Translations under genes and position numbers: made by a program
Notes under the pieces: model-generated
What the model saw: only the letters and a program-made list of their open reading frames with translations
Told to the model about the DNA's origin: nothing
Database searches by the model: none
Source of the DNA: a virus
Strand: one strand, 5' to 3'
UHGV virus genome: UHGV-0138564
DNA length: 22,217 nt
Part shown: positions 12,869 to 14,814 of the stretch, in pieces
How positions within the stretch are numbered: the first letter of the stretch is position 1
Layout of the letters: each line of letters starts with the position of its first letter

Positions 12869-13084
12869 ATGAAATCCATGGATAAGTTAACAACGGGTGT
12901 CGCCTATGGCACCTCAGCAGGTAGTGCCGGGTACTGGTTTTTACAGTTGCTCGATAAAGTCACGCCCTCACAGTGGGCGGCAATAGGTGTGCTGGGTAGT
13001 CTGGTATTTGGCTTGCTGACGTATCTGACAAACCTTTATTTCAAGATTAAAGAAGACAAGCGTAAGGCTGCACGGGGAGAGTAA
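12869..13084 (+). CDS. S: Pinholin, S21 type, with dual start (MKSM...): antiholin/holin pair, 71/68 aa
   Basis: Near-identity by eye to recalled phage 21 S ([23 protein letters not shown]...[13 protein letters not shown]...[17 protein letters not shown]); GAGG SD; two in-frame ATGs three codons apart. Confidence 0.85.
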
Positions 13085-13088
13085 TTCA

Positions 13089-13709
13089 ATGACTCAAAAC
13101 TATGAAGTGATTGTGAAAGGGATCCGCAATTTTGAGAATAAAGTTACGGTAACTTTAGCGTTACGGGACAAAAACCGCTTTGACGGTGAAATTTTTGACC
13201 TGGACATCTCGCTGGACCGTGTTGAAGGTGCCGCGCTGGAGTTTTATGAGGCAGCAGCCAGAATGAGCGCCAGGCAGGTCTTCCTGGGAGTGTCAGAAAA
13301 ATTGTCAGAAAAAGTTGAGTCTTATCTGCAGCATCAGTACTCCATTAAGATTGAAAATCCTGCCAATAAACACGATCGTCCTCATCTTGCGGGTTATGGT
13401 AGTGCAGTTAAAACCAGCACCGGGCGCGCAGAGCAGGAAAAAAACGCCGTGGATGACATAAGTCGTGCGGTGGTTACTGTGGAGTTTCCGGGGCACGTGG
13501 CGTCAAGAGTGAAAGTTGGGAATGGTGGTGCTCCTGTGCTGACGAAAATAATCGGCAGCAAGGTCAGTGTCTGGCTTGATGATGAAGAAGTGTTGTCGCT
13601 TATGTACAAAGAAGATTACGACCCGGTAATAACAACTTTCAGTGATCACGAAGCAAGGGCAAGAGAGTACGCTTTATCGGTATTTGCAGCGATGCGAGCC
13701 GGGAATTAG
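13089..13709 (+). CDS. Hypothetical protein inserted between holin and endolysin (206 aa), possibly DUF1327/YdfR-related
   Basis: ORF with GGGGAGAG SD; soluble, no signal or TM segment; the holin-to-lysozyme position is the one YdfR occupies in the Qin prophage (recalled). Confidence 0.5.
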   Translation: MTQNYEVIVKGIRNFENKVTVTLALRDKNRFDGEIFDLDISLDRVEGAALEFYEAAARMSARQVFLGVSEKLSEKVESYLQHQYSIKIENPANKHDRPHLAGYGSAVKTSTGRAEQEKNAVDDISRAVVTVEFPGHVASRVKVGNGGAPVLTKIIGSKVSVWLDDEEVLSLMYKEDYDPVITTFSDHEARAREYALSVFAAMRAGN

Positions 13710-13762
13710 CGACAACACCGTCACGAAAATGAGAAAGTACCTGCCACTCCTTATAAATATCT

Positions 13763-14296
13763 ATGAGCGCAAAAATCAAATACGGTCTGTCGGCTGCCGT
13801 TCTGGCGCTGATTGCTGCAGGCGCATCTGCTCCTCAGATACTTGACCAGTTTCTGGATGAAAAAGAAGGTAATCACACAACGGCATACCGTGATGGTTCT
13901 GGCATATGGACCATCTGTCGTGGTGCCACAATGGTGGATGGTAAGCCCGTCATACCGAGAATGAAGCTGTCGAAGGAAAAATGCGACCAGGTTAACGCTA
14001 TTGAACGTGATAAGGCGCTGACATGGGTGGAGCGCAATATTAAAGTACCACTGACTGAACCACAGAAAGCGGGTATCGCCTCATTTTGTCCCTATAACAT
14101 TGGCCCAGGTAAGTGTTTTCCGTCGACATTTTATAAGCGGCTGAATGCTGGTGATCGAAAAGGCGCCTGCGAGGCGATTCGCTGGTGGATTAAGGATGGT
14201 GGCAGAGACTGCCGTATTCGTTCCAATAGCTGCTTCGGGCAAGTTTCGCGTCGGGACCAAGAAAGTGTGCTGGCGTGCTGGGGGATAGACCAGTGA
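13763..14296 (+). CDS. R: SAR endolysin (T4-lysozyme-family muramidase with N-terminal signal-anchor-release domain)
   Basis: N-terminal weakly hydrophobic Ala/Gly-rich segment ([15 protein letters not shown]) followed by E-x8-D-x5-T catalytic spacing ([16 protein letters not shown]), as in T4 lysozyme and R21. Confidence 0.8.
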
Positions 14297-14814
14297 ATAA
14301 CATGTTTGCTAATGCTTGGTTGAAAGTTGCCACGGTTTCGGCTCTCCTCATTGCCTCATTTGTTGCAGGGAGTGTGTGGACGGAACGAGCATGGGAAAAG
14401 AAATGGGCGGATCGTAATAGTGAAGAATCCTCTCAGGCTGTGAACGCTCAGATAGCTGCTCGTATGATTGAACAAGGGCGAGTGATCGCTCGTGATGAGG
14501 CTGTTAAAAATGCACAAGAACAGGCTGCAAAAGCGGCTGCGAATGTTGCTGGCCTGTCTGCCACTGTTAACCAGCTGCGCACCGAAGCAACAAAACTTAC
14601 CGTCCGCTTGGACGCTGCAAAGCACACCTCAGGTCTTGCCGTTGCCGTCGGAAGCAAAACAACCGCCACCAACGCCGCGATGCTTGCCGACATGCTCGGA
14701 AGTATTGCAGAAGAAGCTAGATACTATGCTGGGCGAGCTGATGAAAGTTACTTGGCTGGAATGACATGTGAACACATTTACGGCTCAGTGAGGGACTCAA
14801 GTAGTGTTAAATAG
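14293..14814 (+). CDS. Rz: i-spanin Rz (N-terminal TM anchor plus coiled-coil periplasmic domain)
   Basis: Start is GTG 14293 (GGGGGA SD 7 nt upstream, overlaps the endolysin stop) or ATG 14302; N-terminal TM ([18 protein letters not shown]) then Ala/Gln/Glu-rich helical region. Confidence 0.7.
14543..14764 (+). CDS. Rz1: o-spanin Rz1 (proline-rich outer-membrane lipoprotein) embedded in Rz in a different frame
   Basis: ATG at 14543; lipobox LLTSC in [15 protein letters not shown]...; eight prolines in about 50 mature residues; lies entirely within Rz. Confidence 0.65.

Follow-up and report, generated by a model that had tools for sequence, protein, structure and literature searches.

The virus genome UHGV-0138564 was analysed over 22,217 nucleotides (the window), and a lysis cassette was found at positions 12869-14814, in which a gene for a protein of 206 aa, ORF206, lies between holin and endolysin. 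An earlier note, made from the sequence without database searches, had placed five genes in this cassette, and all five were present at those positions, each open reading frame (ORF) with a strong family match. The five are an S21-type class II holin, or pinholin (12869-13084, 71 aa); ORF206 itself, an extended protein of the YdfR family (13089-13709); a lysozyme of the RrrQ/933W type with an N-terminus resembling that of signal-anchor-release (SAR) endolysins (13763-14296); a Rz-like i-spanin of the DUF2514 type (14302-14814, with an alternative GTG start at 14275); and a Rz1-like lipoprotein, the o-spanin (14510-14764), in the +1 frame and wholly inside Rz. All features described are on the plus strand unless indicated otherwise. 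Given such matches for all of the ORFs, the reality of the cassette is far beyond chance, and the region is assigned as a late lysis cassette of the Qin/mEp460 type from an Escherichia coli lambdoid prophage. ORF206 is identified by its family matches as a rare long version of YdfR, a common and poorly understood family. The arrangement was already known, and what this allele is seen to add is a rare domain combination within the family.

Domains of ORF206

Profile search of ORF206 gave PF07041 (DUF1327) with E=5.5e-47 and 158 bits (cutoff 25), residues 1-93 aligning with positions 1-93 of the 93 of the model, and residues 1-99 were 84% identical to YdfR of E. coli K-12. The relation to DUF1327 and YdfR, which the earlier note had offered as a guess, was thereby confirmed. 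For the core of the DUF1327 domain (aa 1-75; 13089-13313), three beta strands and then a long helix are predicted. Hydropathy analysis revealed no hydrophobic segment in ORF206, and no signal peptide was found; because a hydrophobic segment is lacking, the protein is predicted to be soluble, as had been claimed for it, and cytoplasmic. No NCBIfam family was assigned to ORF206, no PADLOC defence family was matched at E<=0.01 and no match to a solved structure was obtained at E<=10 in a sequence search.

Comparison with the Qin prophage of K-12 (blastn against NC_000913) showed an insertion of 360 bp in the window (13387-13746), which sits exactly at the 3' end of ydfR and encodes residues 100-206 together with 37 nt of untranslated spacer. 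Behind the conserved DUF1327 core and a K-12-like helix (together aa 1-99) the insertion adds a linker, modelled with low confidence, and a domain of 85 aa resembling gp22 of phage HK97. This C-terminal domain (aa 120-206; 13446-13706), for which a beta sheet and then a long helix are predicted, matched phrog_11851 with E=7e-8, a family that HK97 gp22 itself matched with E=4e-5. The domain also matched HK97 gp22 directly in BLASTP (E=5e-7) and in a Foldseek search on BFVD (probability 1.0, 31% identity over 75 columns). The structural model of the domain is of low confidence, and the weight of the homology is carried by the sequence evidence. No Pfam family was found for the region of aa ~120-206. 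The domain is rare; it matched seven clusters among 1.84 billion representative proteins, and 12 proteins were obtained in a profile search. It could also be observed alone, as a protein of 143 aa encoded upstream of an unrelated holin/M15-peptidase cassette, inside YdfR alleles of 243 and 328 aa, and in a protein of 267 aa (P0126), which has a very diverged DUF1327-like N-domain and is encoded between Q and holin in other prophages. Both domains of ORF206 are predicted as a beta sheet with a long helix. An internal duplication of one fold was not supported, hhalign aligning 27 columns with a probability of 15% (E=0.0017).

In several loci the YdfR-like or gp22-like gene was directly followed by a small gene of opposite orientation (L006, 2100-2372; L007, 3324-3563; L009, 2268-2549; L002, 6828-7052; all on the minus strand). 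The same was true of HK97 (L101, 2716-2976, minus strand), where this gene is gp23, annotated as 'reverse moron product'. These partner genes belong to different families (phrog_2411, 21218 and 2572) or had no PHROG match, and the allele of the window has no such partner.

Alleles, distribution and selection

Homology to near-isogenic prophages, which share 98% identity over 89% of the window, extended from upstream of the holin to position 13287 (codon 66 of ydfR), broke off there and returned at 13748, 15 nt before the ATG of the endolysin. The segment in between (13288-13747) is swapped in these prophages for unrelated sequence of 200 or 474 bp. Ten length classes of YdfR between 103 and 328 aa were found (103, 105, 114, 116, 174, 183, 206, 243, 265 and 328 aa), all with the N-domain in common, and further lengths, e.g. 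176, 211, 268 and 296 aa, occur in the protein database. The complete allele of 206 aa was present in one of 5,426 complete E. coli genomes, that of strain LR-45, where the variable segment is 100% identical to that of the window and the ORF is intact; it was also present in one IMG/VR contig. The C-terminal 85 residues were matched at 100% in a 19.9-kb contig labelled 'MAG: Bacillota bacterium' (JAEWTL010000010.1, L105), the sole match when one genome per species was searched, and this contig is most likely mis-binned E. coli prophage DNA. From this pattern ORF206 is classified as a rare mosaic allele of ydfR.

Parts of the 2.1-kb cassette region matched 5,154 of the 5,426 complete E. coli genomes. 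Among sequenced phages, an S21-type holin was found in 438 records and the DUF1327 N-domain in 100, including mEp460, H-19B, BP-4795 and many Stx1a and Stx2c phages. When IMG/VR loci were recovered with either domain of ORF206, all 90 had the DUF1327 gene no more than 50 nt downstream of an S21-type holin, at the 4-nt spacing also seen in the window; an endolysin followed in 87, and the other three had no endolysin match in the DNA at hand. There is no ydfR in phage 21, nor in the Stx2 phage PA12, whose holin and endolysin are of the same types. The gene is accordingly described as frequent but optional, about three-quarters of the phages with an S21-type holin being without it, and because of this absence it is not counted as a core lysis component or as needed for lysis in general. 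The earlier note had asked after two things, absence of the inserted ORF from related cassettes and frameshifts in its homologues; the absence was indeed seen in about three-quarters of the related phage cassettes, while the homologues proved intact.

Long ORFs were intact in strains LR-45, UPEC-245U and AR_0089, and frames were uninterrupted in all 90 IMG/VR loci and in all E. coli loci that were checked. The ratio of nonsynonymous to synonymous substitution rates (dN/dS) against diverged homologues came to 0.27 in the N-domain and to 0.24-0.26 in the C-domain. Judged by these frames and ratios, ORF206 is a real gene with an intact frame, on which purifying selection acts. The pairing of a DUF1327-type with a gp22-like domain recurs with different linkers in three diverged lineages, i.e. 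in the proteins of 206 and 243 aa, in that of 328 aa and in that of 267 aa (P0126). It can therefore be argued that the fusion was selected and is not accidental.

Long YdfR alleles are labelled as pseudogenes in PGAP/RefSeq annotation ('DUF1327 domain-containing protein, incomplete, missing C-terminus'). Alleles flagged in this way are those of L001 (12239-12859, 206 aa), of which only the 5' part is annotated, of L008 (2656-3642, 328 aa), where the rest of the ORF is unannotated, and of L009 (1802-2326, 174 aa). Pseudogene status was rejected, since LR-45, UPEC-245U and AR_0089 carry complete ORFs, and the flags are for the same reason regarded as artefacts. The practical consequence is that long intact YdfR alleles are mislabelled by PGAP as truncated pseudogenes.

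The first 66 codons of ydfR (13079-13288) showed the lowest variation of all cassette DNA in 91 loci, with a nucleotide diversity of 0.03-0.10 compared with 0.11-0.24 in the holin (12869-13078); hypervariable sequence begins at 13289. Diversity at third codon positions was 0.077 in the N-domain of ydfR (0.055 at first and second positions) and 0.327 in the holin. Among close alleles, the ratio of nonsynonymous to synonymous polymorphism (pN/pS) was 0.41 for the N-domain and 0.15 for the adjacent holin. The simplest reading of the low DNA diversity in the N-domain is recent recombinational spread, the segment serving as a homology arm for module exchange. An RNA element was considered as the cause of the low synonymous diversity and rejected, as no Rfam match was obtained over 9200-15500 at E<=1 and the folding z-score was -0.21.

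Lysis genes, expression and neighbouring genes

The holin matched PF04971 with E=2e-35 and 121 bits (cutoff 26), as well as phrog_9876 and phrog_20, both annotated as holin. It is 86% identical to S of phage 21 over all 71 aa, including the N-terminal MKSM, and has two transmembrane segments, the first of which is rich in Gly, Ala and Ser. Initiation at Met1 would yield an antiholin form of 71 aa and initiation at Met4 (12878) a holin form of 68 aa; both dual-start products are annotated in the record of phage 21. Pinholins form small heptameric pinholes that depolarise the membrane, not large holes. The match to PF04971 and the identity to S21 thus agree with the S21-type pinholin with an MKSM dual start that had been predicted.

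The endolysin matched PF00959 with E=5e-24 and showed the catalytic motif E35-X8-D44-X5-T50, the triad of which aligns with that of R21. It is 91% identical to RrrQ of K-12 and 32% identical to the SAR endolysin R21. Residues 7-24 (13781-13834) form a hydrophobic segment rich in Ala, Gly and Ser (61% G/A/S/T), and a Pro follows ASA. A Pro after ASA would disfavour cleavage by signal peptidase. SAR-type behaviour, with an uncleaved anchor, is predicted for the endolysin. The i-spanin matched PF10721 (DUF2514; E=5e-45) and phrog_312 (Rz-like spanin; E=3e-50), is 57% identical to RzpQ of K-12 and is hydrophobic at aa 1-28, indicating an N-terminal transmembrane segment by hydropathy; together with these matches this agrees with an i-spanin that has a helical domain in the periplasm. 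The start of the o-spanin ORF is preceded at 9 nt by GAGG, with alternative starts at 14495 and 14543; the ORF encodes an LTSC lipobox (Cys codon 14576-14578), 10 of the 62 mature residues are Pro, and the protein matched phrog_11621 (Rz-like spanin) with E=1e-7. The frame offset of 1, the lipobox, the proline-rich mature part and the family match all bear out that Rz1 is embedded in Rz. The cassette is consequently a coherent one of pinholin, SAR endolysin and Rz/Rz1, as the earlier note had it, each part being supported by sequence-level tests, with the pinholin and SAR behaviour predicted from sequence. The findings on ORF206 leave the picture of pinholin/SAR lysis unchanged.

No promoter-like site was found between 12800 and 13763. 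Downstream of the DNA methyltransferase gene and ahead of the holin lies a terminator-like hairpin with a T-run (12808-12832); it has a 6-bp stem with five GC pairs, followed by TTTTTATTTC, and presumably does not stop RNA polymerase modified by Q. The ATG of ORF206 lies 4 nt past the stop codon of the holin, and the Shine-Dalgarno sequence that serves it, GGGGAGAG (13074-13081), is located within the 3' end of the holin gene, so that the gene does have the Shine-Dalgarno sequence attributed to it. In phage PA12 the same motif and stop codon are followed, after 4 nt, by the ATG of the endolysin gene R. By this comparison ydfR takes the coupled ribosome-binding site that is the endolysin's own in cassettes without ydfR. 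As ORF206 has no promoter-like site of its own and its start is coupled to the holin, it is produced along with the holin from the late transcript that depends on Q, and co-expression at lysis, which had been inferred from its location, is thus supported at this level. The start of the endolysin is pushed 53 nt downstream of ORF206, behind a leader without obvious Shine-Dalgarno sequence; in K-12, the start of rrrQ overlaps the stop of ydfR. Within 13735-13762, a conserved stretch of 15 nt that runs up to the ATG of the endolysin (cttataaatatct) is likewise free of a Shine-Dalgarno sequence, and CTCCTTA, the reverse complement of TAAGGAG, is found just upstream of it.

The window represents the late region of an E. 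coli lambdoid prophage and carries genes for KilA-N, DUF968 (YdfU-like) and antiterminator Q (9275-9652), cargo genes, the lysis cassette, an insert of two genes and the genes for terminase. The cargo upstream of the cassette includes an N6/N4 DNA methyltransferase (11749-12801). The closest complete genomes are E. coli chromosomes, with 98% identity across 86-90% of the window. The stretch from Q to the methyltransferase also contains two minus-strand genes (9696-11095), one encoding 149 aa without family match and the other 309-310 aa (DUF6731, E=2.5e-11); the cargo position between Q and S is where Stx phages carry their toxin genes. The insert between Rz and terminase (14887-16714) consists of a gene of 140 aa (15003-15425; 156 aa if started at 14955) and a gene of 430 aa (15422-16714) which overlap by 4 nt, the second matching DUF6575 and, weakly, DUF7226. 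The best promoter-like site of the region, with 10 of 12 matches and an extended -10 TG, lies after Rz at 14887-14914 and belongs to this insert. The two genes matched PADLOC PD-T4-10_A (E=1e-5) and PD-T4-10_B (E=3e-4) weakly and in the correct order, and the insert is probably a defence moron resembling PD-T4-10.

Possible roles of ORF206 and comparison with known systems

A very large share of E. coli prophages, among them Qin of K-12 and Stx1 phages such as H-19B, have a YdfR-family gene in their lysis cassette. Functional data on YdfR could be found in a single report (PMC13232886, 2026), in which residues 1-72 of the K-12 protein interacted with Rne(1-597) and with Rng in two-hybrid assays, Rne(1-598) co-purified with Strep-YdfR and DNase-resistant nucleic acid co-purified with YdfR. 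ORF206 most likely serves as an accessory protein made late and located in the cytoplasm, the N-domain of which would dock on RNase E and on RNA. The protein would then be a modular adaptor in the cytoplasm and not a part of the lysis machinery. In view of the 84% identity, its N-domain may bind the catalytic half of host RNase E/G as well as RNA in the manner of residues 1-72 of K-12 YdfR, and exchangeable C-terminal modules, in this allele the gp22-like domain, may supply allele-specific activity or targets. The outcome might be that RNA decay is altered late in infection, e.g. by protection or processing of the long late transcript, although this last step is speculation. The account as a whole, i.e. 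a Qin-type cassette with a mosaic ydfR allele that encodes a late cytoplasmic adaptor docking on RNase E and RNA, with exchangeable C-terminal modules, and altering RNA decay, is given an even chance of being correct.

Several observations weigh against this account. The interaction with RNase E is known only for the overproduced K-12 protein of 103 aa, overproduction of YdfR alters few transcripts, and a contaminant as the source of the RNA could not be excluded (PMC13232886). The fixed location behind the holin would suit a role related to lysis as well. Furthermore, the pN/pS of 0.41 and the small asymmetry between codon positions in the N-domain fit relaxed constraint as well as they fit diversification. 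A more far-reaching version, which we regard as unlikely, holds that the junction of S and R in S21-type cassettes hosts a polymorphic modular late protein, in which a DUF1327 domain docking on RNase E/G and RNA is combined with interchangeable C-terminal effectors, among them the gp22-like domain that also occurs as a free-standing moron. The alleles would then reprogramme host RNA decay in different ways or evade RNA-targeting defences, and the unusually well-conserved DNA of the N-domain would act as the homology arm for module swaps. Irrespective of these proposals, the allele shows the modularity of YdfR, with a fixed N-domain and swappable C-modules, and ties YdfR to the HK97 gp22 moron family; taken together with the report on RNase E, these findings offer a specific hypothesis, open to experiment, for an orphan gene that is widespread.

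ORF206 might instead regulate the timing of lysis, either as a partner of the cytoplasmic tail of the pinholin or antiholin or of the SAR endolysin, or in cis, through an effect of the captured ribosome-binding site on the amount of endolysin. This explanation is in line with the constant position of the gene, which in 90 of 90 loci comes next downstream of an S21-type holin at an unchanged distance of 4 nt, and with the use by ORF206 of a ribosome-binding site that is otherwise that of R. The junction of ydfR and R also differs between alleles, the stop of ydfR overlapping the start of rrrQ in K-12 and a leader of 53 nt without obvious Shine-Dalgarno sequence being present here, and translation of R must therefore differ between them. 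A genetic screen cited in PMC13232886 ties ydfR to envelope integrity. However, ORF206 has neither a membrane segment nor a signal peptide, and the gene is missing in 338 of the 438 phages with an S21-type holin, phage 21 being one of them and Stx2 phages whose endolysin is of the same type being others. Moreover, diverged relatives are found elsewhere, between Q and holins of other types, the gp22-like domain occurs in the tail region of HK97, and a hypervariable C-terminus would be unexpected in a partner of a well-conserved holin. A regulator of lysis timing is thus considered unlikely.

A benefit to the lysogen, e.g. superinfection exclusion or an anti-phage or counter-defence activity, with a C-terminus made variable by an arms race, is considered somewhat more unlikely still. 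The homology of the C-domain to a protein annotated as 'moron product', the hypervariable and modular locus and the defence-like neighbours, i.e. the DNA methyltransferase upstream and the pair weakly resembling PD-T4-10 downstream with its own promoter-like site, all point to such a moron. The gene is, however, not bracketed by any promoter-like or terminator-like site, its translation is tied to that of the holin, and it matched no PADLOC family. Constitutive transcription across S and ydfR in a lysogen would express the holin as well, and ydfR of K-12 is essentially silent under standard growth, with almost no reads in RNA sequencing (PMC13232886).

That ORF206 is functionless, a recombination by-product at a mosaic junction whose chance open frame drifts through nested deletions, would accommodate the nested indel series of 243, 206, 174 and 103 aa, the singleton fusions to holin, DUF968, KilA-N-like and Rz1 sequences, the pN/pS of 0.41 with third-position diversity in the N-domain nearly equal to that at first and second positions, and the pseudogene labels on long alleles, but is highly improbable in the face of the uninterrupted frames in 90 of 90 loci from IMG/VR and in every E. 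coli locus that was checked, the dN/dS of 0.24-0.27 for both domains, the recurrence of the two-domain pairing across deep divergence with differing linkers and the artefactual nature of the PGAP flags.

The adaptor role proposed for ORF206 has parallels in T7 gp0.7, T4 Srd and phiKZ Dip, small cytoplasmic phage proteins which, through binding to RNase E, change the decay of RNA in infection. These three are early or middle genes of virulent phages, and their effects have been demonstrated. YdfR would be comparable to them by functional analogy only; it is a late gene of temperate phages, its effect on decay is a proposal and it has no sequence relationship to them.

HK97 gp22, the 'moron product' of phrog_11851, is homologous to ORF206 at aa ~125-203, and the two share the motifs TVGFPE/TVEFPG and Y(K/Q)ED(Y/F)(D/N)P...EARA(R/K)EYA. 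It differs in being a stand-alone protein of 120 aa without DUF1327, encoded between the tail genes I and J and paired with the reverse-strand gp23. No literature on HK97 gp22 was found.

Phage 21, with its experimentally defined pinholin/SAR system, resembles the window in its holin (86% identity, MKSM included), in the aligned E/D/T triad and the weakly hydrophobic N-terminus of its endolysin and in its embedded o-spanin. It differs in that it has no gene between S and R, as the earlier note had correctly stated (the end of S21 and the start of R21 are both at 40081 in OL657228), and in its endolysin (32% identity) and its unrelated Rz21 (PF03245 type, compared with DUF2514 in the window). 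Within the cassette of the window, only the holin is therefore classed as phage-21-like, the endolysin being of the RrrQ/933W type and the spanin of the DUF2514 type.

The closest parallels to the whole cassette are the Qin prophage of K-12 and phage mEp460. Qin carries the same gene families in the same order (essQ-ydfR-rrrQ-rzpQ/rzoQ), with rzoQ annotated inside rzpQ, and differs in its YdfR of 103 aa, the stop of which overlaps rrrQ, compared with the 360-bp insertion, the protein of 206 aa and the 53-nt gap to the endolysin in the window. mEp460, a viable phage, has the same order (gp54-57), including the upstream methyltransferase. The description of the cassette as interrupted, and the novelty it implied, were overstated, since annotations of the order S-ydfR-R already exist for K-12 Qin, for mEp460 and for E. 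coli prophages by the thousand.

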